Shown piece after piece: positions 9,396-29,662 of a DNA stretch of 35,653 nucleotides (position 1 is the stretch's first letter; every line of letters starts with the position of its first letter). The DNA lies in NCBI GenBank assembly GCA_043819135.1, contig JBDRFG010000062.1, positions 1-35,653 on the forward strand, read 5' to 3'. Under the pieces are notes generated by a model that did no database searches, had not been told where the DNA came from, and saw only the letters and a program-made list of their open reading frames with translations. A program made the position numbers and the translations under genes. The stretch comes from Candidatus Eiseniibacteriota bacterium (GTDB lineage Bacteria; Joyebacterota; Joyebacteria; Joyebacterales; Joyebacteraceae).

Positions 9396-10758
9396 CTCCG
9401 ATCACGACGTTCTGGATTCTGACGTGGGGCGCGCCGTCGCTGACGGGCAGCGGGAACTGACCTGACTTGCCGCATCCGCCCGGGCCGTCGTGGATGCCCA
9501 GATCGTCGCCGAGCATGTCGATGTCTTTGAGCGTCTTGAAGACGTTGCCGGTCAGCGTCACGTCGCGGACCCTCTCTGCCAGCTTGCCGTCGCGTATCAT
9601 GTGCCCGTCGGCCGCCGTGAACGTGAACATCTCGCCGTTGGTCTGCCCGCCGGAGGCCATGATGGCGTAGACGCCGAGCTTCGTGCCGGCGATCATGTCG
9701 TCGAAGCTCGAGTCGCCCGCCTCGATGCACGTGTTGCGCATGCGACACACCGGAGCGTAGCGGTAGTCGATGGACCGGGCGCTGCCGGTAGGACGCTCGC
9801 CCATCTTACCGGCGGTCTCGCGCGAGTGGAGCCTGCCCGTGAGCTTGCCGTCCGTGATGAGGTAGGTCTTCTCCGTCGGCACGCCCTCGTCGTCGTAGAC
9901 GACGTGGCCGCGCAGCCCCTTGTCGAGCCCCGTGTCGTAGACATTGAGGAACGGCCGTCCGAACTCACGCCCGAGCACCATCACCTTCTGCAGGTTCTCG
10001 TCCTCGTAGACGTTGTCGCCCTCCGACAGGTGGCCGAACGCCTCGTGAATGAAGACGCCGGCGAGCCGCGGGTCGAGCACGACCGTGTACTCTCCGCCCT
10101 TCACCTTCGGTGCGTCCAGCTTGGCGACCGCGATCTCGCAGCTCTTCCTGATGTCGTCCTCGAGCCCCAGCGCAACGCCGAAGTCGTCCGTCGAACCGAA
10201 CGATACCCAGTGCGACTGGGAATCACCGTCGCGGCTGGCCATCGCGGCGATGGCTCCGCCCATGTCCACGCGCTCCTGGTAGATGAGGCTGCCCTCGCTG
10301 CTTCCGAACCAGCGCCGGTGGCAGCGGTCGTAGAAACGCACGGTGGAGCTCACGATGAGATCGTGAGCCGCAAGCACCTGCTCGGTGTAGGCGCGGAAGA
10401 TCCCGACCTTCTTCTCCAGAGGGACCGCTCGAGGGTCGCTCTCGAGGTCTAGCGGTACGTCGGCACGGACGGGGTCCACTTCGGCTAATTGGCTCTTGTC
10501 CTTGCCCACGAGCCTCGCCTGGTCTATGGCGTGCTGCGCGAACTCATCGATACGGTCGACGCTGTTGAAGGACGCGAACCCCCACCCGCCCTTGTTGAGC
10601 GCGCGGACGTTGCCTCCGAAATCGACCTTCTTCCCGAGGTCGGTCAGCTGCGGCCCCGTGAACTGGACCCTCGACTCCTCGGTCTCCTCGATGTGCACCT
10701 CGAGATAGTCGCACTGCGAGGAGAACTTCTTGAGCGTTTGTTCCAGCCGGTCCTTCAT
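9388..10758 (-). CDS. tldD: TldD family metalloprotease
   Basis: HEAFGH metal-binding motif, YDDEG, RMRNT, CGKSGQ..PVSDGAPH. Confidence 0.92.
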   Translation of the reverse strand: MKDRLEQTLKKFSSQCDYLEVHIEETEESRVQFTGPQLTDLGKKVDFGGNVRALNKGGWGFASFNSVDRIDEFAQHAIDQARLVGKDKSQLAEVDPVRADVPLDLESDPRAVPLEKKVGIFRAYTEQVLAAHDLIVSSTVRFYDRCHRRWFGSSEGSLIYQERVDMGGAIAAMASRDGDSQSHWVSFGSTDDFGVALGLEDDIRKSCEIAVAKLDAPKVKGGEYTVVLDPRLAGVFIHEAFGHLSEGDNVYEDENLQKVMVLGREFGRPFLNVYDTGLDKGLRGHVVYDDEGVPTEKTYLITDGKLTGRLHSRETAGKMGERPTGSARSIDYRYAPVCRMRNTCIEAGDSSFDDMIAGTKLGVYAIMASGGQTNGEMFTFTAADGHMIRDGKLAERVRDVTLTGNVFKTLKDIDMLGDDLGIHDGPGGCGKSGQFPLPVSDGAPHVRIQNVVIGGE

Positions 10759-14543: not shown

Positions 14544-15179
14544 CTAGTCGTCGTCGACCGCGTCGTCAGCGAACGGGCACCACGGCGTCATCTGACCGGG
14601 CGTCCCGCCACCCATTCCGGGGCCGCCCATCGCGCTACGAGCGCCCATCGCGCTACCGGGACCGCCCTTTGCGCCGCCACGGCCCATCATACCACCGCCG
14701 CCCATTCCACCTCTGCGACCCATCATGCCCGGATGACCCTGACCGCCCATACCGCCATGGAGCAGCCCGCCAAGGCCCCGGTCGAAGAGCACCTTCTGGT
14801 CGTCGTCGAGAAGCGGGCGGATCTCCTTGTGGATCTGGAGCCTCAGCTTCGCCAGCTTCACTTTGATCGCGGATACTTCCTCGATGGTGTTCTCGATGGC
14901 GCCGTAGTCCGGGGCGGCATCGTCCTCGACGTCACGCGCCTCGAGCATGATGACCTTGAGCCTGTTCGTCAGCTCAGCCCGATCGTCGTTGTAATTGTCT
15001 TGGATCTTCTCTATCTGCTCCTGCTGCTCTGCTGTGAACGCCGGTCCCATGCCTCTTCCCATTCCCCGATGTCCTCCTCCGGCCCTGCCACGCATCGCGA
15101 CGGCGGGAACAGCTATCAGAGCCACAGCCACCAGCGCCAGTACCACGATCGTTATGAGCTTCCTCTTCTTCGACTTCAT
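14544..15179 (-). CDS. Spy/CpxP/ZraP family periplasmic chaperone or metal sensor
   Basis: Signal peptide, FTAEQQEQI and LLDDDQK motifs, Gly/Met-rich flanks; lies downstream of a ZraSR-like pair. Confidence 0.75.
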   Translation of the reverse strand: MKSKKRKLITIVVLALVAVALIAVPAVAMRGRAGGGHRGMGRGMGPAFTAEQQEQIEKIQDNYNDDRAELTNRLKVIMLEARDVEDDAAPDYGAIENTIEEVSAIKVKLAKLRLQIHKEIRPLLDDDQKVLFDRGLGGLLHGGMGGQGHPGMMGRRGGMGGGGMMGRGGAKGGPGSAMGARSAMGGPGMGGGTPGQMTPWCPFADDAVDDD

Positions 15180-15320
15180 CGTTCTCTCCCTTCGATTCCG
15201 GATCCTGAGGGCGACTGCCATCGGGCCGTCTCTTCTTCGGACCCCCGACCTCTTTCCTTCTGTGATGCCCGCGACCGTGGGTCGTGTTCCAGTCGCGAGC
15301 ATGTTCTGCCTCTTAATCAA

Positions 15321-15336
15321 AGCAACCGTGATGCCA
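15321..15336 (-). promoter_or_regulatory. Sigma54 (-24/-12) promoter for the Spy/ZraP-like gene
   Basis: Minus strand TGGCATCACGGTTGCT, matching TGGCA-N6-TTGC (GG-N10-GC). Confidence 0.85.
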
Positions 15337-15545: not shown

Positions 15546-16889
15546 CTACAGGTCTATTGCGTATTCCTTGATCTTGTTCTGGAGGGTCCTTCTGGAGATG
15601 CCGAGGACCTTCGCCGCGTGGGTCCTGTTCCCCTCGGTCTGCTTGAGGGTCTTTATGATGGTGTCGCGCTCGACCTCGCGCATGGTCTTGCCGCCAGTGA
15701 GTGACGTCCCCTCCCCGCCGACGGACGAGGCCTGGACCTTGGCCGGAAGGTGCTCGGGGAATATCGTCTCGCCGCGGGAGAGCACGACAGCTCGCTGCAC
15801 GGCGTTCTCGAGCTCGCGGACGTTGCCGGGCCACTCGTAGTTCATCGCCATGCGCACCGTGCTCGGCGACATCTTCTTGGGCTTGCCGCCCGACGGCGCG
15901 TGGGCCCGCAGGAAGTGGTCTATGAGAAGCGGAATATCACCCACCCTGTCTCGCAGCGGTGGCAGCGTAATGGTGACGACGTTCAGCCGGAAGTAGAGGT
16001 CCTCGCGGAAGCTCCCCGCTGCTATCTCGGCTTCGAGGTCCTTGTTGGTAGCCGCGATGACGCGCACGTCAACCTTGACGTCCGTGGACCCACCGACGCG
16101 CTGCACGATATGATCCTGTAGAAACCGGAGGAGCTTCGCCTGGAGTGCCTCGGACATGTCGCCGATCTCATCCAGGAAGACGGTCCCTCCGTCGGCCGTC
16201 TCGAACTTCCCTCGCTTCTGATGAACGGCGCCGGTGAAGGCGCCCTTCTCGTGACCGAAGAGCTCACTCTCGAGGAGTCCCTCCGGGATCGCCGAGCAGT
16301 TGACCGCGACGAGGGGCTTCCTCACGCGACCGCTCGAACTGTGGATCTCCCGGGCTATCATATCCTTGCCGGTACCGCTCTCGCCGAGGAGGAGGACCGA
16401 CGCGTCACTGTCGGCCACTCGGTGGGCGATGTCGAGCACGTCACGAAGCGCGTCGCTCGCCCCGATGATGCCCGTCGCGAGCGCGAACTCGTCGCGTTCG
16501 TCCGCGTGCGACTCGGGCGTGCCCTCCATCCAGCGGCCGATGACCCGCCGCACCTCGTCGATGTCTATCGGCTTCGTGATGTAATCGAAAGCCCCGAGCT
16601 TCATGGCGGAGACCGCGGTCTCAACGGAGGCGTACGCCGTCATCATGATGACGCCGGTCTCGGGGCTTAAGCTCTTGATGCGTTCGAGCGCCTCGATGCC
16701 GTCCATGCCGGGCATGCGCAGGTCCATGACGACGAGATCGTGGAAGCCGGCCCGGAGTCGTTCCACCGCCGCCTCGCCGTCGCCGGCGGTGTCGACCGCG
16801 TGGCCGTCGCTCTCGAGGACGGCGCGCAGGAGTTCCAGCACGCTGGACTGGTCGTCGACGACGAGGATGTTGAGTGGCGCTGCCTCCAT
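15546..16889 (-). CDS. Sigma54-dependent response regulator (NtrC/ZraR family)
   Basis: Receiver (VVDD, DLRMP, KP), Walker A GESGTGKD, ESELFGHEKGAFTGA, FLDEIG, WPGNVRELEN, Fis HTH. Confidence 0.95.
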   Translation of the reverse strand: MEAAPLNILVVDDQSSVLELLRAVLESDGHAVDTAGDGEAAVERLRAGFHDLVVMDLRMPGMDGIEALERIKSLSPETGVIMMTAYASVETAVSAMKLGAFDYITKPIDIDEVRRVIGRWMEGTPESHADERDEFALATGIIGASDALRDVLDIAHRVADSDASVLLLGESGTGKDMIAREIHSSSGRVRKPLVAVNCSAIPEGLLESELFGHEKGAFTGAVHQKRGKFETADGGTVFLDEIGDMSEALQAKLLRFLQDHIVQRVGGSTDVKVDVRVIAATNKDLEAEIAAGSFREDLYFRLNVVTITLPPLRDRVGDIPLLIDHFLRAHAPSGGKPKKMSPSTVRMAMNYEWPGNVRELENAVQRAVVLSRGETIFPEHLPAKVQASSVGGEGTSLTGGKTMREVERDTIIKTLKQTEGNRTHAAKVLGISRRTLQNKIKEYAIDL

Positions 16890-16908: not shown

Positions 16909-18837
16909 CTAGAGCGGCGTCCCTCCACCATTCTCCCTCGACTTCGTCTCTCCGGCGACGGGGAGCACGAGCGAGAACGTCGTGCCCTGGCCCTGCGAGC
17001 TTCTGACCCCGACCCGCCCGCCGTTCTGCTCGACGACGCGAGACACGACGGTGAGACCGAGGCCGGTCCCCCTTGGCTTGGTGGTGTAGAACGGCTCGAA
17101 CAACTTGCCGACCTCTTCTTCGGACATCCCCTCGCCCGTGTCGGTGACGCCGATGGTCACCGTGGGCGGGCCGTCCGTGGAGCCGCTGACAGATGTCTCG
17201 ATGGTAAGTGTTCCGCCCTCGCCCATGGCCTCGATGGCGTTCAAGAGCACGTTCAGGAGCGCCTGCCGGATCTGCATCGGGTCGACGAGCACGTCCGGAA
17301 GGCCCTCACCGAGCTTCATCTCGATGCTGACGCGTTTGAACTGGGCGTCCTCAGACACGAGCGCCAGCGCCTCCTCGATCATCGTGCCGGAAGATATCTG
17401 CGTCCTGTCGGGCGCCACCGGACGCGCGAAGTCCAGGAGTTCCTGGACGACGCGGTCCAGCCGCTCGACCTCTTCTATCATAATGTCCGAGTAGCGCTCC
17501 TCCTCGGAGCCGGGCTCGAACTTCGTCCGGAAGAACTGCGCGAACCCCTTGAGCGAGCTCAGAGGATTGCGGACCTCGTGCGCGACACCGGCAGCCAGTC
17601 TGCCGAGCGACGCCAGATGGCGTTCCCTCTCGACGGCTTCCTTGAGCTCCTCGATCTCGCGCAGGTCCTGGAAGAGCAGCACGGTCCCGGCACGCTCGCC
17701 CTCTTCGTCCCACAGGGACGAGGCGGAGAGAGCGACGGGCACGGACCCGGCACGACCGACCACGCGCGTCTCGGTCTCGAGAACCTCCCGCTCGCCGGTC
17801 AGTACGCGGTCGACCTCCGCCCGGTCCGCGTCGTGGTCGACGCGCATGACGTCGTTCACGTCCGCCCCGTCGACGACCGCGGCCCCCAACCCGAGGATCG
17901 CCCTCGCGCCGGCGTTCACGGTCACGACGTGCCCGGTAGCATCGAGAGAGACGAGTCCGCTCGTCATGCTTTCGATGATGTTGCTCGTGTAGGAACGCAT
18001 GTTCTCGAGGGCGGTCCGCGTGGACCTGTGGGTCGCTATTATGAAGAGGAAGTAGATGGCCGTGCCGCCCACGAGAAGCAGGACACCCGCGAGCATGAGC
18101 GTGTAGTTTCTGGAGGAATGGAAGGCGGCCTCAAGTTCGGTGGCGTCGAGGCCCACTACGGCGGTGATCGGAACGGGAGCGTTGGGATCGACCGGACGGC
18201 CGAGGAGTTCCTCGAGCCTCGCCCGGACCAGCTCGGGGTCGGCCGGAGTGACCAGAGCAAGGCGCCCAGGCGGCCCCATCCTGCTGCGGCCCAACTGCCG
18301 GAGCCTGTGGTCGGCAGCCGCCGGAGGAGGCAGGTCGATCGAGACGCGATACTCGTAGACGCGGCGCCCGCCGGTCTCGACGATCCTGGTCCCGACCGCT
18401 ATGTCGACCCGCACGCCCGTCGGCCCGTGTCCCCCGGGAAGCCCGATGCGTCGGACGCCTCTGGGGTCACCACGGACGTCCGTTCTGACGTCGGCCTCAG
18501 GCAGTAGCCGGCCTACCTCCACACTGTCGCTATGTACGACAATCCTGCCGTCGCTATCCAGCAGGGCCAGGTAGGCGATGCCGGGGTGGGTCGATGACAC
18601 CTCCTCGAAGAAGGTGTTGATGCGGGTGGGGCGCCACGCGGGAGACATGAGCTCGGCCCTGAGGTCTGCCCGCGTGAACGAGAGGATCCCCCGGGCCTGA
18701 TACCAGAGGATCTCGGACAGCTGCTCCCGCCCTCGACCGATGTCGCGGTACGAGATGAAAGCCACGGTGATCGCCAAGAGGACGATGCCGATGACGATGG
18801 ATGTGATGGGTAGATAGGCCACTCGCTTCGAACGCAT
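16909..18837 (-). CDS. Sensor histidine kinase with PAS domain (ZraS/AtoS-like)
   Basis: Two TM segments, PAS, AHEVRNPL H-box, NVLLNA, DTGEG, FEPFYTTK, GTGLGL. Confidence 0.93.
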   Translation of the reverse strand: MRSKRVAYLPITSIVIGIVLLAITVAFISYRDIGRGREQLSEILWYQARGILSFTRADLRAELMSPAWRPTRINTFFEEVSSTHPGIAYLALLDSDGRIVVHSDSVEVGRLLPEADVRTDVRGDPRGVRRIGLPGGHGPTGVRVDIAVGTRIVETGGRRVYEYRVSIDLPPPAAADHRLRQLGRSRMGPPGRLALVTPADPELVRARLEELLGRPVDPNAPVPITAVVGLDATELEAAFHSSRNYTLMLAGVLLLVGGTAIYFLFIIATHRSTRTALENMRSYTSNIIESMTSGLVSLDATGHVVTVNAGARAILGLGAAVVDGADVNDVMRVDHDADRAEVDRVLTGEREVLETETRVVGRAGSVPVALSASSLWDEEGERAGTVLLFQDLREIEELKEAVERERHLASLGRLAAGVAHEVRNPLSSLKGFAQFFRTKFEPGSEEERYSDIMIEEVERLDRVVQELLDFARPVAPDRTQISSGTMIEEALALVSEDAQFKRVSIEMKLGEGLPDVLVDPMQIRQALLNVLLNAIEAMGEGGTLTIETSVSGSTDGPPTVTIGVTDTGEGMSEEEVGKLFEPFYTTKPRGTGLGLTVVSRVVEQNGGRVGVRSSQGQGTTFSLVLPVAGETKSRENGGGTPL

Positions 18838-18973
18838 GCTGTCTTGCCTCCCAGGCCATTAGACACCATGAGTTCGGAGGCGGGCAAGAGGAAAGCACGG
18901 CTGCGTGTGGCAGATGCCGCAGGCATTGAGGACGCCGGCCGCGTGAGTTCGCCACTGACGCGACGCAGGAGGC

Positions 18974-19810
18974 TCAGTAGTGGCCGAGCGTCCCCGAACT
19001 GCGCGCACGCCGGCAGCCCCACTCGAGCACGGCGAGCCCCGCGGCGAGCGATACTCCCGCGGCCACCGCGAGGAAGAGCAGAGAACCGGCAGACCCGGTC
19101 GCGGCGGCGCACCCGGCCCCGTAGCGCGCAACGGCGAGTGCGTGTGTGGTCGGCAACGCTCCCGCCCCCGCCTGGAGCCAGCGGGGCAGCATGTCGACCG
19201 GGAAGTAGACGCCACCGAGGAGCCCCGCGGCGCCGCTCACCGCCCACGAGATCGGTTCTCCCTCCTTCGAGACCATGATGACGCCGGCGGATGCCAGCCC
19301 GGCCCCGCACATGACGAGCAGGTACAACCCCAGAGCCGCGACCAGCGACGGCGAGAGTCGGAGGTTCAGACCGATGAGAGCAGCGGCGCCTGCCATCAGG
19401 AGCGCCCCGCCCAGGACCGTGATGGCGAGTTCGCCGGCGCCCGCCAAGAGCACCAGCACCGGTGTCGGCAAGCGGGTCGTCAGGAGCAGCTCCAGCGTCC
19501 CCTGGAGCTGTTCGCGCCGGACGGCGGAGCGGAACGAATGCAGCCCCGAACTCGCGAGCGAGTGCACGAAGATGCCCACGACGGCGAACGACGAATAACT
19601 CATCCCGTAGTGCTCGATGAATCCGGAGCCGGCGCACGACACGACACGACCCACGAACGAGAACGTCACGAGCGACAACACGAGCGATGCCAGACCGAGC
19701 GCGAGCTTGGCCCGGTAGCTCGCGTAGGTGGCGAGTTCCCGCCTGAAGAAAGCAAGAGCGGAGGTGAGCACGAGCGATACCGCGCCGGTCTGTCGAGGTT
19801 CCGTCCTCAC
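18974..19810 (-). CDS. ABC-2 type exporter permease
   Basis: About 6 TM segments, REQLQGTLELLL, GGVYFPVDMLPRWLQ..LPTTH; GTG start overlaps the ATPase stop (GTGA). Confidence 0.85.
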   Translation of the reverse strand: MRTEPRQTGAVSLVLTSALAFFRRELATYASYRAKLALGLASLVLSLVTFSFVGRVVSCAGSGFIEHYGMSYSSFAVVGIFVHSLASSGLHSFRSAVRREQLQGTLELLLTTRLPTPVLVLLAGAGELAITVLGGALLMAGAAALIGLNLRLSPSLVAALGLYLLVMCGAGLASAGVIMVSKEGEPISWAVSGAAGLLGGVYFPVDMLPRWLQAGAGALPTTHALAVARYGAGCAAATGSAGSLLFLAVAAGVSLAAGLAVLEWGCRRARSSGTLGHY

Positions 19811-20472
19811 GCTCCGACCCTCCCCCCGCCCAGCTCGATCACGAGGTCGCACCGTGAGGCAACCGCAGGGTCGTGCGTAGCCAGCACCACGGACCGTCCC
19901 GAGCGCGCGCGGCGCTTGAGCGCTCCCCACAAGAGCTCGCGCGCCCTTTCGTCCACCGACGCGAACGGCTCGTCAAGAACGAGCAAACGGGGCTCCCCGA
20001 GGCATGCCCTGGCCACGGACAGCCTGGCCAGCGCCCCGCGCGACAGGCTTCTGGCGGGCCTGGCGAGAAACCTCTCCAGGTCCAGCTCGGCGGCGAGCCG
20101 CATGATCTCCGCGGCGATCCGACCGGAGCTGATGCCCTTGAGCCGAGCGAAGAAGGCAAGGTTGTGCCTGGCCGACAGGCGCCAGTAGAACGACCGGCCC
20201 GTGCCCAACGACACTCCAATGGAGCGGCGCACCGCGGACTGCTCGGTCACGACGTCGCTACCGAAGACGAACCCTCGCCCTGACGACGGCCTGACCAGCG
20301 TCGCGATGATCCTGAGGGCGGTCGTCTTGCCCGCCCCGTTCGGCCCGACCAGAGCGGCGAGCTGTCCCTCCCCCACGGAGGCCGAGACCCCCGCGAGCGC
20401 CGGCACCTCTCGCCCCTTGTGCACGTAGTTCTTGCACACGCGCTCCAGCCTGACCGCCGGCGTTTCGTTCAT
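19807..20472 (-). CDS. ABC exporter ATP-binding protein
   Basis: Walker A GPNGAGKT, signature LSRG, Walker B LLVLDEP, H-loop ATH; start MNETP. Confidence 0.9.
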   Translation of the reverse strand: MNETPAVRLERVCKNYVHKGREVPALAGVSASVGEGQLAALVGPNGAGKTTALRIIATLVRPSSGRGFVFGSDVVTEQSAVRRSIGVSLGTGRSFYWRLSARHNLAFFARLKGISSGRIAAEIMRLAAELDLERFLARPARSLSRGALARLSVARACLGEPRLLVLDEPFASVDERARELLWGALKRRARSGRSVVLATHDPAVASRCDLVIELGGGRVGA

Positions 20473-20488
20473 TGAGCCCCCGTACCAC

Positions 20489-22027
20489 TCATGGAGCACC
20501 CGGCGCGGATCCGCCATCCGCGGGCCCGGACGCGGACCCGGGAGACACCGCGAACGACCACGCGCTCACTCTGCCGCCCGCCGGGGCGACGCGAACCAGT
20601 TCCGGCTCGGGCGTCCCGACGAGGTCGCACGCGATGAGCCCCGCGGCGCCCGCGACGTTGTCGAATCCCGCGCGCGTCGAACCCGTCTCGCCGTCCAGCA
20701 GGTACACACCCTCGACGTCCCAGATCAGCAGGTCGAAGGTGGAGCCTCCCGCGGCGGCGACCGACAGGTTCCCCCCGGCGGCGGCCGGAGCTTCTCCCAT
20801 GTCACCAACGAGCAGGCATGGATCGTAGACGTTCTCGCGGGTCTCGAACCTCCACATGACGTCGCCCGACCCGGGGTCGCACGCGTACAGGAACCCGTCG
20901 CTGCACCCGAGGACCAGCTCGCTGCCGGGGCCCCCATCGAGTTCGACGGGGGTAAGGCAGTTCACGGGCTCTCCGGTCTCACGGAGCGCGTCTCTGATGA
21001 ACCTGGGGATCTTCGGGTTTGTAAGATGCGACTCGTGTGACTCGACCCCGAACTGCAGCCTGTCGAGCACTTCGCCGGTCCGCGCGTTCATCACAACGAC
21101 CGCGCCCGCGAAGCAACCGACGGCCAGCTCGGCGATGCCGTCACCGAGGAAGTCCGCAAGCACCGGCGTCGAACTGACCACGCCCTCCGGGTTGAGGCGC
21201 TCGCGCCTACCCAACCCTACTTCCCACGCGAGTTCACCTTCGCCAGAGAGACACAGCAGGTGGTTCCCGTTCTCGGCGACGAGGACCTCGTCCCGGCCGT
21301 CTCCGTCCACGTCCAGCGCGGACGGGTGAGTGAACCCACTCGCGAACGGCCCGCTGGCGGAGACCGCATCGCGAGACCATAGCTCGCGCAGGTCGTCACC
21401 GGCGAGAGCCGCCAGAACGTCGTCCCGCTTCTTCCCCGCGGTGTAGACGATGCCCGGACCGAAGCCGTCCGAACTCCCGCCGGCCGGCCGCTTGCACACG
21501 CGAGCGCAGACCAGATCACCAATGGTTCCAGCCAGAGTGGCTCCGAGCACGTGCTCTCCCGTCGCACCGTCGAGCACTGAGAGCTCGTCGCCACACGCCA
21601 CGACCACCTCGACCGTCCCGTCGCCGTTAAGATCCGCCGCTACCACGCACGAGCGCTGGGGGAAGGCGGCGCGCCAGAACACGTCCCCACTTGCGCCGTC
21701 GAGAACCACGACGCCGGACGGTTCGTTGCGTCGGCCTCCGTGCAGCAGGACCTCGTGTCGACCGTCGCCGTCGAGATCCGCGACCGTCCCGCTGAGCAGC
21801 ACCTGCCCCGGAAAGCTGACGCTGCGCTCCCACAAAACCTCGCGCGTGAACCCGGGGCCGGGCTCCGACGGCAGCACGAGGTCCGGCGTGCGTGCGTCCG
21901 CAGAAATCGAACGGGTCAGGTCGGCCGCTACCGCGTCCGCGCGCATCGGGCCGGGCGGGGCGGCGAGTATCACCGCCGCCACCGCCACCCATAGCCACGC
22001 CCGCAGCCTTCTTCTAGTAATCGACAA
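20489..22027 (-). CDS. Secreted FG-GAP/PQQ-like repeat beta-propeller protein
   Basis: Repeats DLDGDGRHE, DLNGDGTVE, DVDGDGRDE, DFLGDGIAE plus W-containing blade motifs; probable TTG start at 22027 gives a signal peptide (start uncertain). Confidence 0.75.
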   Translation of the reverse strand: MSITRRRLRAWLWVAVAAVILAAPPGPMRADAVAADLTRSISADARTPDLVLPSEPGPGFTREVLWERSVSFPGQVLLSGTVADLDGDGRHEVLLHGGRRNEPSGVVVLDGASGDVFWRAAFPQRSCVVAADLNGDGTVEVVVACGDELSVLDGATGEHVLGATLAGTIGDLVCARVCKRPAGGSSDGFGPGIVYTAGKKRDDVLAALAGDDLRELWSRDAVSASGPFASGFTHPSALDVDGDGRDEVLVAENGNHLLCLSGEGELAWEVGLGRRERLNPEGVVSSTPVLADFLGDGIAELAVGCFAGAVVVMNARTGEVLDRLQFGVESHESHLTNPKIPRFIRDALRETGEPVNCLTPVELDGGPGSELVLGCSDGFLYACDPGSGDVMWRFETRENVYDPCLLVGDMGEAPAAAGGNLSVAAAGGSTFDLLIWDVEGVYLLDGETGSTRAGFDNVAGAAGLIACDLVGTPEPELVRVAPAGGRVSAWSFAVSPGSASGPADGGSAPGAP

Positions 22028-22190
22028 GGCAGACGTCCCTGTTCGAGCAGTTCCCGAAGTCGAACGCGCACTCGTCGACTCCACCGCAGTTGCCCCAGTC
22101 GATGAAGATGTAGCACATCATCGATGCGGGGATTGCCCCCTCGGTCACCGAGGACAGGGAACTACCGTTGGCCATCCTGAGATGCTTCAT
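22014..22190 (-). CDS. RiPP (ranthipeptide-like) precursor peptide 2, 58 aa
   Basis: MKHLRMANGSSLSSVTEGAIPASMMCYIFIDWGNCGGVDECAFDFGNCSNRDVCLVDY; RBS AGGAGG; leader similar to precursor 1. Confidence 0.88.
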   Translation of the reverse strand: MKHLRMANGSSLSSVTEGAIPASMMCYIFIDWGNCGGVDECAFDFGNCSNRDVCLVDY

Positions 22191-22230
22191 TGAGATTCCT
22201 CCTCTCATGAACAGCGGCGCCACGGCGGCG

Positions 22231-22407
22231 CTACTGCGTGTCAATGATACAGCTGTCCGCGGTGACGCATCCGTTGTCCAGGTCGAACAACCAGCACACG
22301 TCGGCGTTCGGACATTGCGAGTAGTCGACGAGGCAGATGTCGCTCACTTCTCTCTGCGCCGCCGGCACCGAACGGACCAGCCCGTTCGCGACCTTCATGT
22401 GTCTCAT
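22231..22407 (-). CDS. RiPP (ranthipeptide-like) precursor peptide 1, 58 aa
   Basis: MRHMKVANGLVRSVPAAQREVSDICLVDYSQCPNADVCWLFDLDNGCVTADSCIIDTQ; RBS GGAGGTGA overlaps the radical SAM stop codon. Confidence 0.88.
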   Translation of the reverse strand: MRHMKVANGLVRSVPAAQREVSDICLVDYSQCPNADVCWLFDLDNGCVTADSCIIDTQ

Positions 22408-22411
22408 CCCA

Positions 22412-24964
22412 TCACCTCCCCTCACGCATGTTGACACCACCCAGTTCGTCCCTACGCGTCCCGCCCGATTCTCGCCCGGCGTCGAACTCGGGACGGACCG
22501 CTTGCCGCGCCGCCTCCGCGAGCCTCGCCCTGCTCTTTTTGGGAAGAGACACGTAGAGCCACATCGACAGCTCCAGTATCCGCTGCGTTACTCGACACCG
22601 AGGTCCCGTCGGCCCGGCGAACGTTCCCTCGGCGGATTCGACGTCGTGCAGGCACGCCCCGCCGCACAGGCCGAACGCCCAGCAATCTGCGCAGGCGGCG
22701 GACCGTCGCCCCAGCGCGCCAAGCAATCTGCCGACGGCGAAGCGGTCGAGCCCCCCGCCCACGTCGCCGACGGCGTATCGCGCGTCACCCGCGAACCGGT
22801 GACAGAGGTACAGACGACCGTCGTGGTCGACGGAGACGTAGCGGGCGCCGGCGCCACAGGGCGCGAGACGCTGTCGACCCAGCTCAAGAGCAAGCACCGG
22901 CTCGATGAAGCACCCCGCCGATGGACGACGCCCCGCGCGTATCGACTCGAGCTCCGCGCGGGCAAGCTCGTCCAGCTCCCCAACAAGCCTATCGGCGAAC
23001 TCGGTGGTCATAGGCGCGCCGCTCACCGGCGCCAGGTGGACGACCCCGAATCCGAGTCCCACGAGATGGCCGACCAAGTCCGTCAGTGCGACGGAGTCCT
23101 CGGTCACGGTCGCTCGCGCGCCCGGACGCATGCCCTCTGGAAGCCCCCGGAGGTTAGCGGCTATTCTCTCGTACGAACCACCGCCGTCCGGAAATGGCCT
23201 GTGAGCGTCGTGGGAGTTCGCCGGGCCGTCTATGCTCACGAGAATGCGGACCCCGACAGCGTGGAGCATCTCGGCCACGTCCGGTGTGAGAAGTGTGCCG
23301 TTCGTCGTCATGTGAAACGAGATGTCCACGCCTCGGGTCGCCGCGCGGCCGCGCGCGTACCGGGCCGTGCGTTCGATGAGACCGGGATTGAGCAGCGGCT
23401 CCCCACCGAAGAAGACGACGGAGACGCTCCTCTCCCCAAACGACTCGCTCAGCAGGAGGTCGATCGCCGCGCGGGCGACATCGTCAGACATCAGTCTCGA
23501 TGTGTGAGGCTCACGTCCCAGATAGCAGTAATCGCAGGAGAGATTGCATCCCCCGGAGACGTTGAGCGCGACCGACGCGATTCCGCTTAGGCTAGGCCCA
23601 TCCGCGCCGGACAGGTGGCGCTCATCCATCGTGAATTCGAGGTGTGCCCCATGACAGAGCAGAGCGTCGCGCCGGCCTCCGGTGAGCACGGAGATCTCGC
23701 CCAGCGCCTCACCAACAGGACCCGGACCGTGGTTCATGCGCAGCACGTCCAGCGCGGCGCTGGACTCTCCGGCCCGGAGCCACCTGATGACGTCCGAGGC
23801 CAGCCCATCTGCTTCGAAGAAGAGCCCCGACCGCGTGTCGAACACGAACACGTCGTCGTCGACCTGGAAATCGTGGAGCCCGTCGGCGGGAGCACGACCT
23901 CGCCCGGTCGTGTTCCCGTCCAAACGGTCAGGACCCGGATCGGGACTCGCCCCCGAGTCGGTTCGCGCATGCGACCCGGCTTCCCCGGCGCGCTCCACGA
24001 TCGCGAGCCGCCTCGACATGCGGCCGAGCACGAGTCGCGCCCTGTCCTGTGACCGCCGGAGGTGCGATTCGAGGATGGTGGCGCCAAGGAGCGCAGCCCC
24101 GGCGGCGCCCCGGTCGTATCGCGAGCACACCAGTTCCACGAGTTCGTCCAGCGCTCCCGACCGCGCACCGAGCCGCAGGAGTTCGCCCGCCCCGCACGCC
24201 TCGGCGGGTGTCGCCAGACCGCTCCTCGTGGCCATCAGCCACGCCGCCGCCGACCACCGTCGCGCCGACAGGTCAGGCTCCAGGTCTTCTATGTCATCTG
24301 CAAGCTGGTAGGCCGCGTGGTAGTCCTCGACTATCCGCTCAGCCCGGGCGAGCGTGTCGGGACGTCCGGCCAGGAGGGCCATGCCAGCCGCGGAGGCCTT
24401 GAGCGGCGACATCTTGCGTCCGAGTTTCGTGAGGGTTTCCGCAAGGGCCTCCTCCCCGACGGCGGACCCCCCGTCGTCGGACATGAGCACGCGCGACTCC
24501 CACTCCAGGCTCGTGAAGAACTCGTCGAGGTATCGTTCGAGGTGAATCCAGAACGCGGACCCCGTCGGGAACAGACGCGAGTACTCGAGCACGAACCGAA
24601 GGAACGAGTCATCGGAGAGACGGGCGGCCGCGGGAGTGGGGCTCTCGTCGCCGTCGAGCCATCGGTCCTGCTGGAGGAAGTGCGCGGCCCCGAAGGCATT
24701 CCCGAGCGCCATGGTCCTCGCCGCCGCCAGGCAGTCGGCGAACGGGTGCGCGCCGGCCAGTGCGAACGGAAGGAGTATGACTATGTTGCCGGGTGTGATG
24801 CCGGGGTCGGCGCATCGTGACGGAAGGCAGGAGACATCGGGCCGCGCGGCCGGACGGCCAGCGCACGGCTCCGCGAGGTCCGCGCTCTGCCCACGGGCCT
24901 CCTCGAAGCGCCGCGCAACCAGCCTGCACTCCGCTCCGGGATCGTAGAAACCTATTCTGGACAA
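22412..24964 (-). CDS. Fusion maturase: isoprenoid-synthase-fold domain + RRE + radical SAM/SPASM
   Basis: QQDRWLD, RKMSPLK, YQLADDIED in the N-terminal helical domain; RRE-like HDFQVDDDVFVFDTRSGLFFE; CNLSCDYC, FFGGEPLL, TTNGTLL, VSIDG; SPASM CGAG..LYLCHRF..CADCWAFGLCGGAC..C. Start uncertain (TTG 24964; frame open to 25015). Confidence 0.88.
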   Translation of the reverse strand: MSRIGFYDPGAECRLVARRFEEARGQSADLAEPCAGRPAARPDVSCLPSRCADPGITPGNIVILLPFALAGAHPFADCLAAARTMALGNAFGAAHFLQQDRWLDGDESPTPAAARLSDDSFLRFVLEYSRLFPTGSAFWIHLERYLDEFFTSLEWESRVLMSDDGGSAVGEEALAETLTKLGRKMSPLKASAAGMALLAGRPDTLARAERIVEDYHAAYQLADDIEDLEPDLSARRWSAAAWLMATRSGLATPAEACGAGELLRLGARSGALDELVELVCSRYDRGAAGAALLGATILESHLRRSQDRARLVLGRMSRRLAIVERAGEAGSHARTDSGASPDPGPDRLDGNTTGRGRAPADGLHDFQVDDDVFVFDTRSGLFFEADGLASDVIRWLRAGESSAALDVLRMNHGPGPVGEALGEISVLTGGRRDALLCHGAHLEFTMDERHLSGADGPSLSGIASVALNVSGGCNLSCDYCYLGREPHTSRLMSDDVARAAIDLLLSESFGERSVSVVFFGGEPLLNPGLIERTARYARGRAATRGVDISFHMTTNGTLLTPDVAEMLHAVGVRILVSIDGPANSHDAHRPFPDGGGSYERIAANLRGLPEGMRPGARATVTEDSVALTDLVGHLVGLGFGVVHLAPVSGAPMTTEFADRLVGELDELARAELESIRAGRRPSAGCFIEPVLALELGRQRLAPCGAGARYVSVDHDGRLYLCHRFAGDARYAVGDVGGGLDRFAVGRLLGALGRRSAACADCWAFGLCGGACLHDVESAEGTFAGPTGPRCRVTQRILELSMWLYVSLPKKSRARLAEAARQAVRPEFDAGRESGGTRRDELGGVNMREGR

Positions 24965-25021
24965 GTCGAGCGTTCCACCGGGGAATCGGGAGCGGTGCAT
25001 CAGGCGATCGGGCAAATGAGA

Positions 25022-25049
25022 AGGGCGAACCCCGGGTGGAGTCCGCCCT
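25022..25049 (-). terminator. Terminator/attenuator-like hairpin upstream of the maturase
   Basis: Minus strand AGGGCGGACTCC-ACCC-GGGGTTCGCCCT (12 bp with G-U pairs that form only on this strand) followed by TCTCATTT. Confidence 0.5.
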
Positions 25050-25321
25050 GCAGATCATGGTTCCAGGATGAGGTACGGCCGGCAGGTCTGGTGCGGGAGA
25101 GCGTCCGAGATAGCCTGCCGGCCGTCGTGGGCTGACTCCATCCCCGCGGAGGTGAGAGCAAGTTACTGACCAAGCTAACTGCCTGGGATGGAGCTATGAC
25201 GAAGAGCCGTGTCGTAGGTGCGTCCTGCTTCTGGATGCTTCGGCTCTTCCGGGGGTAACCTTTCACACTGTCTATATCGATTACAGCCGCGGCGCCTCTC
25301 CAGCATGCAGCTGTCTTGATC

Positions 25322-25396
25322 TCAGCCGAGGAACGGCGATGCAATTCCGATGAGCAGGATCACGACCATTACCTTTGTCTTCGCCGCACTCGGCAT
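25322..25396 (-). CDS. Putative small hydrophobic peptide, 24 aa (MPSAAKTKVMVVILLIGIASPFLG)
   Basis: ATG preceded by GAGGTTGAGGAA; basic N-terminus then hydrophobic stretch; too short to appear in the ORF track. Confidence 0.4.
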   Translation of the reverse strand: MPSAAKTKVMVVILLIGIASPFLG

Positions 25397-25559
25397 TTCC
25401 TCAACCTCTATGTGATCTCCGCGGGGACTTCCGCGGTGGTCTCATAAACGGAAGGAGAAGCAGACCAAAGAGCGACCGGACTCGCCCCCCCTGCGTATCT
25501 AACACCCTGGCCGCCTCTCCCTCCGTATTCCGTTGTCAAGTCATCCACATACTCTTAGG

Positions 25560-25575
25560 GCATCAAGTGTGCCAA
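25560..25575 (-). promoter_or_regulatory. Putative sigma54 promoter pointing into the RiPP cluster
   Basis: Minus strand TTGGCACACTTGATGC: TGGCAC -24 box and GG-N10-GC spacing; -12 box ATGC instead of TTGC. Confidence 0.65.
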
Positions 25576-25801: not shown

Positions 25802-25922
25802 CGCCGGTGGGCCGCCCATGGGTGCCGGCGGACCCCGACGGCCGATGGCCCCTAGCCGGGCCGGCCACGCACGCGCGGCGCGGTGCCGGGCGCGCAGGCT
25901 GCCTGGCTGGCGGCACCATGGA

Positions 25923-25955
25923 AACACCCCCGGCGCGTCGCGCCCCGGGGGTGTT
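25923..25955 (-). terminator. Hairpin downstream of the TPR-sigma54 activator gene
   Basis: 11-bp inverted repeat AACACCCCCGG / CCGGGGGTGTT about 45 nt after the stop at 26001. Confidence 0.55.
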
Positions 25956-26000
25956 GGGACTCTCTCTGTATGGACTCGGGACGTGCCCGTTCAGCGGGCT

Positions 26001-29000
26001 CTACCCGATCCCGTACTTCCTCATCTTGGCATGGAGGCCCGGCCGCGAGAGCCCCAGGAGGTCCGCAGCGGCCTGCTTGTTCCAGCCGGTCCTGCCGAGA
26101 GCCTCAAGGATGCGGCTCTTCTCCAGCGCCTCCACCTCGTCCTTCAGTGAACGCCTCAGCGCCTCGTCCGAGCGGAGCCCGGTCTGGTACTGGTCGCGGA
26201 GCTCGGGACGAACCTTGTCGATACCGATGACATCATTGTCCGCCGCAAGCGCCACTCCCCTGCGCACGTCGTTCTCGAGTTCGCGGACGTTGTTGCCGCG
26301 CCAGTCGTGCTTCGTGAACAGCTCGCGCACCTCGCGGCTGAACCCGGGGATCGACTTCCCCTCGCGCTCGCAGTAGAGCTTGAGGAAGTGCTCCATAAGG
26401 AGCGGGATGTCGTCCGGACGGTCCCTGAGCGGCGGGATCTCGATGACGACCGCGCAGAGCCTGTAGAAGAGGTCGCGCCTGAACCGGCCTTCCTTGACCT
26501 CCTCGGCCAGGTCCTTGTTGGTCGCGGAGATGACGCGCGCGTCGCTGGTCCGGGTCACGTTCTCCCCGACTCTGCGATACTCGCCGTTCTGCAGGAACCG
26601 GAGCAGCTTCACCTGCAGCTGGGGGCTCATCTCGCCGATCTCATCCAAGAAGAGCGTCCCCTGGTCGGCAACCTGCACCAGGCCCTCGCGGTCACGGTCT
26701 GCGTCGGTGAACGAGCCCTTGACGTGGCCGAACAGCTCGCTCTCCTGCAAATGCTGCGCGATCGCGCCCGCGTTCAAAGCGACGAACTTGCCGGTCTTGC
26801 TCCGCCCGCCCTGATGGATGGCGCGAGCGATGATGTCCTTGCCGACGCCCGACTCGCCGCGGACGACGATGGGCACCCGGCTATCCCTTAGCCGGTCGAC
26901 GCTCGCGAGGATCCGCTGCATCTCGGGGTTCCTGGTGATGAACCCTGATGACTCGGGTGATGTCCCGAGCTCTTCGGCGAGACGGCCGTTCGCTTCCCAC
27001 GCGCTCGATTCGCCCAGTCGCGAGCAGGCAACGCCCAGCATCCTTGCGGCGGCGCCGATGAACTCGATGTCGCTCTGGGTGAAGGGTGTCGAACGCTCGC
27101 TAACGAAGCGGTCCGCATACAGGACATATGAGCGGTCGCGGCGGAACCCGACCTTGGCCGGGATGAGCGCGACGGCGCCTACGTCCTGCGGCGCGCCCCC
27201 GTCGGAGGAACGCCCGTCGCTGATCACGAGAGGTCTGGCGTGCCCGCGCGCGGCCAGAGTGGTGCGGACGAACCGTGTGGCCTCGACAACGCCCCTGCCG
27301 GACCGGTCCACGGAAGTGGCAATGACCGGCGCCGCGCCCTCGGTGAGCGAGAAGAGCAGCAGCCTGTCGGCGACCAGCACGTCGGCGATCTCTTCGGCGA
27401 ACTGATGGAGATCCTCCGCGCGCGGCTCCGCGGTCTCGAGGAACCTGTATCCCTCTGCTATGGTCGAGTACCTCGCCTGCAGCGACACCGCCGCGTCGGC
27501 GAGCCCCGCGTCCAGCTCTCTGAGTATTGCGTCGACCTCGGCCAGGCCCTGCGTATCGTGCCCGACCTCAAACTTCAGCCGCGACCTCTCGAGCCATGTT
27601 CTGGCGCGGTCGGGCTGGCCGCCCCTCTGAAGCGCCTTCCCGCGCTCGAGCTGGCAGCGCGCGACCCAGCCGCCGGCCCCGACCCTGGTGAAGATGGCCT
27701 CTGCCGCCGAAAAGCGCGCCTCGATCCTGTCGAGGGGAAGCTGACCCTGCGGCGCCGAGTCCCTGAGGCCCACACCGTCGGCCATGGCGGTCCTGGCGAG
27801 TTCCATCGACTCGCCTATCCTGCGCAGCATCTCCTCGGCCCGCGTGATCAGCACCTCGGCGGCTGTCGCCTCACCCTTCGCGTAGCAGACGCTGGCCAGC
27901 ACGCGCAGGGTGGCGCCCTCCTCGAGCTTGTCGCCGATCTCACGAGTGAGCTTGATGGCCTCCGAGCAGTCGCGTTCGGACTCCTCGAGCCTGCCGAGTC
28001 TGAACAGAACGTCGGCGCGGCGGCGAAGCACCTCGCCCACGACGTCACTGTTCGAAGACAGCCTGTAGGCGCATCCCAGAGCCCTGTTCAGGGTTCCGAG
28101 CGCGTCCTCGTTCCTGTCCTGGTCCATTTCGAGGTGGCCGATGAACTCGAGCGCCAGCGCCTCGGCCCGGAGGTATCCGCGCTCCTGACTCGTATGAAGC
28201 GCCTCGTCGAAGAGGCCGCGCGCCCTGCCCCACTCGCGCCGCTCGCGGCACACGTTGCCGAGCGCCGTCGAGGCCGCGACGAAACCTCTGGTCGCGCCGA
28301 TTCTCGAATAGATGTCACGCGCCTCGTTCAGATGGCCCTCGGACTCGGCCCAGCGCGACAGCTTGTAGAGGATGATGCCGAGGTTGGTCAGCCTGTCGGC
28401 TATCGCGGCCGAACGTCCGAGCCGTCTGTCGATCTCGAGCGCATCTTCCAGGTGCTCGAGCGCGCCGTTCAGATCGCCCATGCGCTTCGCGAGAATGCCG
28501 AGGTTGTTGTAGGCCGAGGCGAGCCCGGCCTCGTCGCCCAGACGCTTCTGCGAGACGAGGTAGTCGGTGAAGTAGTCGCGAGCCGCGGTGATGTTGCCGA
28601 GCTCTGCGTTGGCTATGCCGAGGGCCTTGCCGGCCTCGGCGAGCAGAGGATTGTCGGGAGACATCCTCAGGGTTTCGTACGCCTTCTGAGCGGCTCGGAG
28701 CGCCTCGTCGTAGCGGCCGCTCTCGATCTCGACCCTCGCGAGGACGACGTTCGCCTCGGCCCAGACCGAGGTCGCGTTCTCATCGAGTTCGAGGTCGTCA
28801 AGCTTGGCGCAGTAGTTACGCGCGCTCCTGTAGTCGCCAAGACCCAGGTGGCACCTCGCGATGCGCACGAAGAGCCCTGCGGCTTCCATGTCGGAGAGCT
28901 CAGCTCCGAGTTCCCCTCCACCTGCCTGAACGAAGTAGCCAAGCGCGTCCGAGTAGCTGTCGGACCCGAGATAGACGTCTCCGAGTCGGATGGCCGTCAG

Positions 29001-29093
29001 CGCCGCATCCCTTGCGCTGCGCGATTCCATCGCCTTTCGGAACGCCTCCAGCATCTCGCGTTCCCGGCTATTGTCCGGTCGCTGACGTGCCAA
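26001..29093 (-). CDS. TPR-repeat sigma54-dependent transcriptional activator (TPR - GAF-like - AAA+ - Fis HTH)
   Basis: TPR motifs (ASAYNNLGILAKRMGD, LTNLGIILY), GESGVGKD, ESELFGHVKGSFTDA, LFLDEIGE, RRDLFYRL, NVRELEN, C-terminal HTH; no receiver domain. Confidence 0.9.
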   Translation of the reverse strand: MARQRPDNSREREMLEAFRKAMESRSARDAALTAIRLGDVYLGSDSYSDALGYFVQAGGGELGAELSDMEAAGLFVRIARCHLGLGDYRSARNYCAKLDDLELDENATSVWAEANVVLARVEIESGRYDEALRAAQKAYETLRMSPDNPLLAEAGKALGIANAELGNITAARDYFTDYLVSQKRLGDEAGLASAYNNLGILAKRMGDLNGALEHLEDALEIDRRLGRSAAIADRLTNLGIILYKLSRWAESEGHLNEARDIYSRIGATRGFVAASTALGNVCRERREWGRARGLFDEALHTSQERGYLRAEALALEFIGHLEMDQDRNEDALGTLNRALGCAYRLSSNSDVVGEVLRRRADVLFRLGRLEESERDCSEAIKLTREIGDKLEEGATLRVLASVCYAKGEATAAEVLITRAEEMLRRIGESMELARTAMADGVGLRDSAPQGQLPLDRIEARFSAAEAIFTRVGAGGWVARCQLERGKALQRGGQPDRARTWLERSRLKFEVGHDTQGLAEVDAILRELDAGLADAAVSLQARYSTIAEGYRFLETAEPRAEDLHQFAEEIADVLVADRLLLFSLTEGAAPVIATSVDRSGRGVVEATRFVRTTLAARGHARPLVISDGRSSDGGAPQDVGAVALIPAKVGFRRDRSYVLYADRFVSERSTPFTQSDIEFIGAAARMLGVACSRLGESSAWEANGRLAEELGTSPESSGFITRNPEMQRILASVDRLRDSRVPIVVRGESGVGKDIIARAIHQGGRSKTGKFVALNAGAIAQHLQESELFGHVKGSFTDADRDREGLVQVADQGTLFLDEIGEMSPQLQVKLLRFLQNGEYRRVGENVTRTSDARVISATNKDLAEEVKEGRFRRDLFYRLCAVVIEIPPLRDRPDDIPLLMEHFLKLYCEREGKSIPGFSREVRELFTKHDWRGNNVRELENDVRRGVALAADNDVIGIDKVRPELRDQYQTGLRSDEALRRSLKDEVEALEKSRILEALGRTGWNKQAAADLLGLSRPGLHAKMRKYGIG

Positions 29094-29484: not shown

Positions 29485-29662
29485 TGCCTTCCTCCTTGTG
29501 GTTGCTGTCTGGAGATCTCCAAACAAACAGAACTAAACAAAACTCGAGGTCGCGTCATCGTACGTCTTCATCGCCGGGATTGATGCGCCAATACTCCGCC
29601 CGGCGGCGGATTGACGCTGCTACTAGTGGGGGTGTCCGGTGGGCAACTGCTTGCCCAAGTCC

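Follow-up and report, generated by a model that had tools for sequence, protein, structure and literature searches.

Among the described pathways for ribosomally made peptides that carry post-translational modifications (RiPPs), a few stand closest to the gene block considered here, which lies on contig JBDRFG010000062.1 of a Candidatus Eiseniibacteriota bacterium (assembly GCA_043819135.1) and centers on a large fused maturase gene followed by two precursor peptide genes. The window is the whole stretch of 35,653 nt that was analyzed, and all coordinates refer to it. In quinohemoprotein amine dehydrogenase (QHNDH), the gamma subunit QhpC is matured by QhpD, exported by an ATP-binding cassette (ABC) pump and combined with the beta-propeller subunit QhpB. 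The CteB/CteA (SCIFF) pair provides the solved structure (PDB 5wgg) that is closest by sequence to the maturase of this block. The PapB/PapA (freyrasin) system consists of a radical S-adenosylmethionine (SAM)/SPASM maturase with a RiPP recognition element (RRE) and a precursor with repeated Cys-Xn-Asp motifs, one small ring being expected per motif, and the accessible parts of the published accounts describe Cys-Asp/Glu thioethers formed by PapB in such motifs (PMC9413430, PMC10739248). For a different type of modification, the accessible part of one report describes ComQ as an isoprenyl transferase that alkylates a conserved Trp of ComX (PMC4979651).

In likeness, the present locus appears to be a PapB/QhpD/CteB-type thioether RiPP pathway that meets none of the equivalog thresholds of these systems, and its maturase carries at the N-terminus a domain (hereafter the N-domain) with the fold of isoprenoid enzymes. 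The core features are the following, all of them encoded, as is every gene of the block, on the minus strand.

22412..24964, minus strand: maturase, 850 aa (867 aa if the upstream TTG at 25015 is used)
23960..24964, minus strand: N-domain, aa 1-335 of the 850 aa of the maturase, with a trans-isoprenyl-diphosphate-synthase fold, undescribed family
22412..23878, minus strand: C-terminal part of the maturase, aa about 363-850, with an RRE-like region, a radical SAM core and a Cys-rich SPASM region
22231..22407, minus strand: precursor 1, 58 aa
22014..22190, minus strand: precursor 2, 58 aa, a paralogue of precursor 1
20489..22027 (or ..22084), minus strand: FG-GAP/PQQ-type propeller, 512-531 aa depending on the start chosen
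19807..20517, minus strand: DrrA-like ABC ATPase, with an alternative ATG at 20472
18974..19810, minus strand: ABC-2 type permease, with a GTG start

These six co-directional genes were already delimited in the initial annotation, and Pfam matches together with same-order tblastn matches in relatives agree with it. The close packing that it described is also found: the maturase stop codon TGA directly follows GGGAGG, within the ribosome-binding site of precursor 1 and 4 nt ahead of its ATG, and the GTGA at 19807..19810 is the stop of the ATPase gene overlapping the GTG start of the permease gene. The propeller stop lies 16 nt before the ATPase gene or 29 nt within it, depending on the ATPase start. 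Because four of the six core genes have Pfam matches above the cutoff (Radical_SAM, FG-GAP/PQQ_2, ABC_tran, and ABC2_membrane) and the gene order is kept in relatives, these genes are more than chance open reading frames (ORFs) of GC-rich DNA. The GC content of the window is 62-70% throughout, with no compositional break at the cluster, and a search of Rfam with positions 18500-26500 gave no match.

Related loci were sought by scanning one genome per species, which yielded 19 loci, mostly titled Candidatus Eisenbacteria, with one Candidatus Effluviviaceae and the rest being metagenome-assembled genomes. Conserved synteny, proposed earlier as a check, was found: in all 13 loci that reach through the permease, tblastn places the maturase and the five downstream genes in identical order, and the remaining 6 of the 19 stop earlier, with the order unbroken as far as seen. 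The precursor genes adjoin the maturase gene in 17 of 17 loci that reach them, which is the opposite of the adverse outcome that had been named, namely maturase homologs without adjacent Cys/Asp peptides. However, the extent of six genes turned out to be too narrow, as the conserved block comprises eleven genes (14544 to 29093), including sigma-54 regulators and a gene of 24 codons. A TPR/sigma-54 activator gene stands directly upstream of the maturase gene in all 18 loci with upstream sequence (67-96% identity), and on the other side a histidine kinase gene follows the permease gene in 12 of 12 loci that are long enough, one of them with a 1.9-kb insertion. An NtrC-type regulator gene comes after the kinase gene in 11 related loci, and a CpxP/ZraP-like gene comes after the response regulator gene in all 8 loci that extend beyond the regulator. 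The gene upstream of the activator is retained in only 2 of 12 loci, so the block has an edge and the synteny is not mere collinearity.

The C-terminal part of the maturase matches Pfam Radical_SAM with 69.9 bits against a cutoff of 29.5. Its radical SAM motif is CNLSCDYC, whose three Cys residues (C473, C477, and C480) do not vary across 21 fused homologues, and neither do C703, C721, C758, C761, C767, C771, and C790 in the SPASM region; the Pfam SPASM model itself gave no match for the maturase. Residues 7-448 of the 453 residues of CteB align with the C-terminal 490 aa of the maturase at E 4.8e-40, and this alignment spans the RRE, the radical SAM core, and the SPASM region. Among the NCBIfam models, the best match is the PapB equivalog model NF047865 (248.7 bits, E 8.8e-74; cutoff 340), followed by the QhpD model TIGR03906, which is covered from RRE to SPASM (238.8 bits; cutoff 453), the nif11-type maturase model (215.4 bits; cutoff 518.7), and the SCIFF maturase model TIGR03974 (177.3 bits; cutoff 425). 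As all four fall below their cutoffs, the maturase is, judging by its sequence, a member of the thioether/peptide maturase group and the equivalog of no named member. The earlier assignment as an RRE-radical SAM/SPASM enzyme is supported by the CteB alignment and by PapB and QhpD as the best models. The RRE is a putative one: the stretch of residues about 363-460 has its counterpart in CteB 7-100 and at the N-terminal end of the QhpD and SCIFF models, with the PqqD Pfam model unmatched.

The precursors fit such a maturase. In precursor 1, for which 18 orthologues were aligned, the pairs C25-D28, C32-D36, C38-D42, C47-D51, and C53-D56 are invariant, together with Y29, W39, and the leader residues N8 and G9. 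In precursor 2 (16 orthologues aligned), the invariant pairs are C26-D31, C35-D39, C41-D44, C48-D52, and C54-D57, joined by Y27, W32, and the C-terminal Y58. Each peptide therefore has five invariant Cys residues, each with an invariant Asp at +3 to +5, in keeping with the Cys/Asp logic first proposed for them. Neither precursor matched a Pfam or NCBIfam family. The leader start is common to both (M-K/R-H-L/M-K/R-x-A-N-G), and its form MKHLK presumably resembles SCIFF leaders. Since PapB is reported to link Cys to Asp/Glu within such motifs, five Cys-to-Asp rings per peptide would be the most economical prediction, by analogy. Unlike PapB/PapA, however, the locus has a pair of paralogous precursors in which CX2D, CX3D, and CX4D spacings are mixed, an additional 335-aa N-terminal domain in a maturase scoring 248.7 against the equivalog cutoff of 340, an ABC-2 pump and a propeller, flanking sigma-54 regulators, and lineage-wide presence. 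It also differs from CteB/CteA, as the partner residues are Asp rather than Thr and CteB lacks an N-terminal isoprenoid-fold domain.

The feature that sets this maturase apart is the N-domain. A search of NCBIfam with it gave no match, a single-sequence search against PDB sequences gave nothing significant, and the cluster names of ten homologues are only "hypothetical" or "uncharacterized". An exhaustive phmmer search produced 207 family representatives at E <= 0.001, and the family alignment was made from 48 very divergent sequences (17-30% identity), over which D104, D223, D227, and D231 are invariant and D100, K189, E156, and W139 nearly so. When the family profile was compared with PDB sequences (E <= 1), all 27 matches were isoprenyl diphosphate synthases or MoeN5, the best at E 1.4e-6. 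The AlphaFold2 (AF2) model of the N-domain has a pLDDT of 91 and a pTM of 0.88, and its top Foldseek matches are all prenyl diphosphate synthases. In the VIA structural alignment, geranylgeranyl diphosphate (GGPP) synthase 5jfq_B is matched with Z 22.1 and a root-mean-square deviation of 3.0 Å over 268 residues; rows 1-41 are all trans-isoprenyl diphosphate synthase (trans-IPPS)-type enzymes or prenyltransferases, including MoeN5 and Ord1, and class I terpene cyclases appear only at Z 12-14. In support of the initial annotation, an isoprenoid-enzyme fold is recovered by profile and by structure, and not by Pfam. Compared with GGPP synthase 5jfq, heptaprenyl synthase 5h9d, and MoeN5, the N-domain has the same all-helical fold of class I isoprenoid synthases over ~270 residues (Z 19-22), whereas it is only 10-18% identical to these enzymes, has QDRWLD as its first motif, and leaves polyprenyl_synt unmatched.

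The conserved residues permit a closer comparison with these enzymes. The second Asp-rich motif (SARM), DDxxD, is present as D223-D224-x-x-D227, and K/R184 aligns with the Lys of GKT (KT motif); the stretch from K184 to DDxxD aligns to the stretch from GKT to SARM in the IspA-like enzyme of the same genome. In the HMMER alignment to heptaprenyl synthase 5h9d, D100 and D104 match the first and last Asp of the first Asp-rich motif (FARM), in a weak stretch of that alignment. In the AF2 model, each of the two Asp motifs is found where a long helix (78-104 and 202-226) reaches its C-terminal end, the usual placement in the trans-IPPS fold. The positions corresponding to the isopentenyl diphosphate (IPP)-binding GGKRxR and RRG appear, in an uncertain reading of the alignment, to be non-basic, and this argues against chain elongation. 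Overall, these residues and the model suggest an N-domain that binds and ionizes an allylic diphosphate without elongating chains. The genome encodes two canonical polyprenyl synthases able to supply the substrate.

Relatives of the N-domain in other settings are informative as to its possible substrate. A word-indexed protein search with the N-terminal 350 aa gave 37 clusters, that of the window included; all carry a radical SAM domain and nearly all are 750-870 aa long, so fusion is the norm among them. Of the 207 representatives, 30 remote ones were scanned for domains: some are other radical SAM/SPASM fusions and many are free-standing proteins of about 320 aa, with P0062 reaching polyprenyl_synt at 28.9 bits and P0055 passing the Terpene_syn_C_2 cutoff. 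Seven of the ten other fusions that were aligned (P0054, P0061, P0063, P0066, P0068, P0069, and P0072) are without the radical SAM CxxxCxxC, in agreement with the Pfam scan, and retain QDxxxD, G-x-K...K, and DDxxDWxxD of the N-domain along with the Cys of the SPASM region; these proteins look like radical-SAM-dead scaffolds for peptide binding. In P0056, P0058, P0059, P0064, and P0076, a squalene-hopene-cyclase-like toroid precedes the N-domain-type domain, and P0059 (1081 aa) joins a toroid, a prenyl-synthase-like domain, and a radical-SAM-dead SPASM body.

Free-standing copies were found next to precursor genes. An N-domain hidden Markov model was run over 98 loci, namely the 19 related loci and 79 metagenome loci chosen by their SPASM motif, which are mostly ordinary radical SAM/SPASM loci. 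It matched the 18 Eisenbacteria-type loci in which the maturase N-terminus is included, and only 2 of the 79 metagenome loci (L047 and L053), so that the wider-family context rests on two loci selected through their radical SAM gene. In both, the gene for the free-standing domain comes directly after an Os1348/NHLP-clan precursor gene (74.5 and 79.2 bits; cutoff 40), which itself follows the gene for a radical SAM/SPASM maturase. Taken together, the fusions and adjacencies suggest, on the evidence of few loci, that the domain is tied in a Rosetta-stone-type manner to peptide substrates and also to a second fold that binds isoprenoids. The layout shared by L053:2581-11771 and L047:602-5553 starts with an M50/PqqD-like membrane protein, and the NHLP-clan precursor cores in L053 and L047 are GCDWICYGYKWG and KGCVIRYGV. 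The L053 cluster further encodes a B12-radical SAM enzyme, a toroid protein, and a pair of small proteins of the SPASM type.

The export module predicted in the initial annotation is supported by Pfam. The ATPase matches ABC_tran with 81.7 bits (and NCBIfam drrA with 146.7 bits, below its cutoff), the permease matches ABC2_membrane with 39 bits, and by these matches the pair is classed as DrrAB-like ABC-2 components. The propeller matches FG-GAP_3 (49.8 bits) and PQQ_2 (48.7 bits); its AF2 model (pLDDT 83.8) has a hydrophobic helix at 6-22 followed by an eight-bladed body, and the protein is probably periplasmic. Its best natural Foldseek matches are BamB, with a TM score of about 0.7 on the target, and a QhpB-like propeller was not among its sequence or Foldseek matches, which is an absence and not an exclusion. 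The propeller gene follows that of precursor 2 in every locus that reaches it, with about 46 orthologous propeller clusters at E < 1e-50. It may assist the pump or bind peptides.

From the observed gene content, homologies, fold, conserved residues, and synteny, a chemistry, an order of steps, an export route, and a mode of regulation can be proposed. The conserved leader would probably be held by the RRE-like region of the maturase, and the radical SAM/SPASM half would join each of the five Cys residues to the Asp 3-5 residues downstream, giving five small thioether rings of the ranthipeptide type, as in PapB and QhpD. The N-domain would most likely ionize an isoprenyl diphosphate and alkylate the peptide while it is bound, in the manner of ComQ acting on ComX, with an invariant aromatic residue (Trp or Tyr) or a thiol as acceptor. 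The ABC-2 pump would export the product to the periplasm, where the BamB-like propeller might be a pump accessory or a peptide-binding partner. That the locus is a sigma-54-controlled, lineage-wide operon for two ribosomal thioether peptides, which are tailored by the N-domain and exported, is an explanation that we regard as evenly poised between right and wrong. Its parts differ in strength. We are confident that the maturase would make a thioether RiPP, and we lean slightly toward the N-domain being a catalytic tailoring domain that acts on the peptide. Prenylation as its particular reaction on the peptide is put forward tentatively, its chance being a little below even. The furthest extension, in which the N-domain represents a new RiPP-tailoring family with the trans-prenyl-synthase fold and the Eisenbacteria product is a prenyl-anchored pair of five-ring thioether peptides, is on present evidence doubtful.

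ComQ/ComX of Bacillus is the nearest functional precedent, and there too kinase and response regulator genes adjoin those for the enzyme and precursor. In contrast to ComQ, the domain here is fused to a radical SAM maturase and its regulators are of the sigma-54 type, and the likeness is known at the superfamily level alone. We know of no RiPP prenyltransferase other than ComQ with an isoprenyl-diphosphate-synthase-type fold.

Several observations weigh against this explanation or parts of it. The other RiPP prenyltransferases confirmed in print are, according to the accessible part of the source, ABBA-type (PMC12715784). The N-domain scores only 12.1 bits (E 0.12) with Pfam polyprenyl_synt (PF00348), for which the gathering score is 27, and the hhalign comparison with the IspA-like enzyme of the genome covers 58 columns with a probability of only 26%. 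The first Asp-rich motif is degenerate, QDRWLD instead of DDxxD, with R101 replacing the second Asp. The precursor core of the L047 relative has no Trp, so Trp is not the acceptor across the whole family. Because every curated maturase model is under its cutoff, the cross-link type is extrapolated, and there is no leader protease gene among the genes of the block. All 31 genomes of the phylum set belong to one family with eight genera, and shared descent may explain part of the synteny. Finally, a shared fold does not prove a shared reaction: the N-domain might serve as a scaffold, or its substrate might be a free isoprenoid.

The scaffold alternative survives best of the rivals. It holds that this is a plain ranthipeptide-type system, the N-domain being non-catalytic and serving dimerization, peptide handling, or membrane association, and we consider it unlikely. 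Trans-IPPS enzymes are obligate dimers, and the fold could serve dimerization only; the degenerate first motif and the unmatched Pfam and NCBIfam models also speak for this reading. Against it, the Asp positions that in the homologous enzymes bind metal have remained invariant over 48 divergent sequences with 17-30% identity. Furthermore, it is the radical SAM Cys that are missing from 7 of the 10 other fusions, and the N-domain motifs persist, which is the reverse of what a non-catalytic N-domain would predict.

In a second alternative, which is improbable in our view, a free isoprenoid is the substrate of the N-domain, which might form or cyclize a lipid carrier or terpenoid, and two pathways are merely co-localized by the fusion. 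In about 37 protein clusters the domain precedes, in one polypeptide, an RRE-bearing peptide maturase, it is also fused to radical-SAM-dead SPASM scaffolds, for which peptide binding is the only plausible role, and its free-standing copies adjoin precursor genes; the IPP-binding positions, in the uncertain reading given above, are not basic. All this speaks against the alternative; in its favor are a fold and metal motifs that are those of isoprenoid enzymes, the occurrence of relatives with terpene-cyclase-like toroids, and the ABC-2 pump, since such pumps often move lipophilic or lipid-linked cargo.

The weakest alternative, QHNDH-like maturation, in which the cross-linked peptides would be small subunits assembling with the periplasmic propeller and perhaps bearing a Trp-derived cofactor, is very improbable: the locus shares with QhpD/QhpC the Cys-to-Asp/Glu cross-link logic, invariant Cys, Asp, and Trp in the peptides, a secreted propeller and an ABC exporter encoded alongside, and QhpD as the second-best maturase model matched from RRE to SPASM, and its near-universal presence would suit an enzymatic or structural role, whereas the QhpD score of 238.8 is far under the cutoff of 453, the precursors match no NCBIfam model and no gamma-subunit model, genes for a cytochrome (heme subunit), a protease (subtilisin), and a flavoprotein are absent from the eleven-gene block, and the best matches of the propeller are BamB-type and eight-bladed.

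For the preferred explanation of a tailored and exported thioether peptide pair, the genes around the core suggest how the operon may be controlled. The remaining features of the conserved block and its candidate promoters are the following.

26001..29093, minus strand: TPR-rich sigma-54 enhancer-binding protein (the activator), 1030 aa, with a TPR region, a Sigma54_activat AAA+ domain and a Fis-type helix-turn-helix (HTH)
25560..25574, minus strand: sigma-54-like -24/-12 box TGGCACACTTGATGC, upstream of the 24-aa ORF
25322..25396, minus strand: unannotated hydrophobic small ORF of 24 aa, MPSAAKTKVMVVILLIGIASPFLG
25158..25172, minus strand: second box, TGGTCAGTAACTTGC, also sigma-54-like, with the maturase start about 190 nt downstream
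16909..18837, minus strand: sensor histidine kinase with PAS, HisKA and HATPase_c (Pfam)
15546..16889, minus strand: NtrC-type response regulator with a receiver, a sigma-54 AAA+ domain and a Fis HTH
15322..15336, minus strand: near-consensus sigma-54-like box TGGCATCACGGTTGC, preceding the CpxP/ZraP-like gene
14544..15182, minus strand: secreted CpxP/Spy/ZraP-like protein with a Gly/Met-rich tail and sub-threshold Pfam scores

The activator matches Sigma54_activat with 209 bits, TPR_12 with 132 bits, and HTH_8 with 49 bits, and rpoN is present in the source genome. A TGGCAC...ATGC box is found at the place equivalent to the first box in 10 related loci (700-nt range searched), and all 18 of 18 related loci have a box of the TGGYC-N7-TTGC type, at a distance of 84-320 nt upstream from the maturase match. 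The loose sigma-54 pattern is not enriched over shuffles (10 in the window versus 5.6 expected), so the case for these boxes rests on their position and conservation. A GC-rich inverted repeat with a T run lies at about 25925..25960 (minus strand), just past the activator stop; it is probably the terminator of the activator gene and would separate the latter from the sigma-54-driven operon. At 29640..29657, about 550 nt upstream of the activator, there is a palindrome, TGGGCAACTGCTTGCCCA, that has the loose sigma-54 pattern on both strands.

The 24-aa ORF lies between the activator and maturase genes in 19 of 19 sequences (the window and 18 loci). Its variable sites by codon position number 7/6/12, and, one Ala to Val aside, the final 15 codons vary synonymously at the third position, a substitution pattern that is, across the aligned sequences, typical of coding sequence. 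It gave no Pfam or NCBIfam match. In most loci, a conserved ACAGCTGC is seen 8-12 nt after its stop.

On the other side of the core, the histidine kinase has two hydrophobic segments that flank a region of about 220 aa, the response regulator matches Response_reg (113.9 bits) and Sigma54_activat (239.5 bits), and the CpxP-like protein falls just under the cutoffs of Metal_resist (27.9 bits; cutoff 29.2) and LTXXQ (22.6; cutoff 24.3). With its periplasm-sensing kinase, its sigma-54 regulator of the NtrC type, and its secreted protein of the CpxP family, which has a Gly/Met-rich tail and a sigma-54-like box ahead of its gene, the trio resembles the ZraS/ZraR/ZraP envelope stress module. Unlike ZraSR/ZraP, the trio here is locked to a peptide-maturation/export operon across the lineage, and the Pfam scores of its CpxP-like member are sub-threshold. 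Quorum sensing of the ComQXPA type was considered as the principal reading and was down-weighted, as the kinase/regulator pair has its own CpxP/ZraP-like partner. A TldD/PmbA metalloprotease pair is encoded at 8040..10758 (minus strand), about 5 kb past the response regulator; TldD/PmbA pairs process some RiPP leaders.

As for distribution, the N-domain is found in 30 of the 31 genomes of the phylum set, including all 20 high-quality ones, and the sole miss is a genome that is 65% complete. The precursor-2 profile matches 28 of the 31, on the contig of the maturase wherever the places were compared, and has a single match in the source genome. In one complete genome (G023), the fused maturase occurs twice, on separate contigs, and the precursor-2 profile is unmatched; this genome may have divergent precursors or a second system. 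Near-universal presence in the lineage suggests a core envelope or signaling role, which it fits better than a sporadic antibiotic cluster, and this role is favored because of that presence together with the regulatory wiring.

With regard to expression, one metatranscriptome, a groundwater RNA library, contains 6% of the sequence words, and the parts that it leaves uncovered are uninformative. One match of its short contigs, to 20430-20610 across the propeller/ATPase junction, has 0 differences; that to 24420-24667 has 1 difference, and that to 25305-25423, over the 24-aa ORF, has 6 differences. These RNA contigs are a weak hint of expression, as DNA carry-over is possible.

The initial annotation knew of no characterized RiPP class with this combination, and this agrees with the literature outside subscription journals, where we found no radical SAM RiPP maturase that has a prenyl-synthase-like domain as fusion or partner and no account of the N-domain family or of the Eisenbacteria cluster. 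If the explanation proposed here is true, the maturase would be the first of the radical SAM thioether type to have an isoprenoid-type transferase joined to it, and a second, independent way of lipidating RiPPs would stand beside those of the ABBA enzymes and ComQ. In the doubtful furthest extension, the N-domain family would lipidate ribosomal peptides and, where it has a fused or adjacent toroid, would build peptide-terpenoid hybrids. As the domain recurs in several RiPP settings, a single biochemical characterization would therefore annotate the whole unnamed family of 207 representatives.

Finally, for the organisms themselves, the product would in that same doubtful extension be made by all members of the lineage and be an envelope component or a ComX-like signal read by the flanking sigma-54 regulators. 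The occurrence of a RiPP cluster in practically every genome of an uncultured phylum, together with its wiring to sigma-54 and to an envelope-stress-like module, points to a core physiological role.

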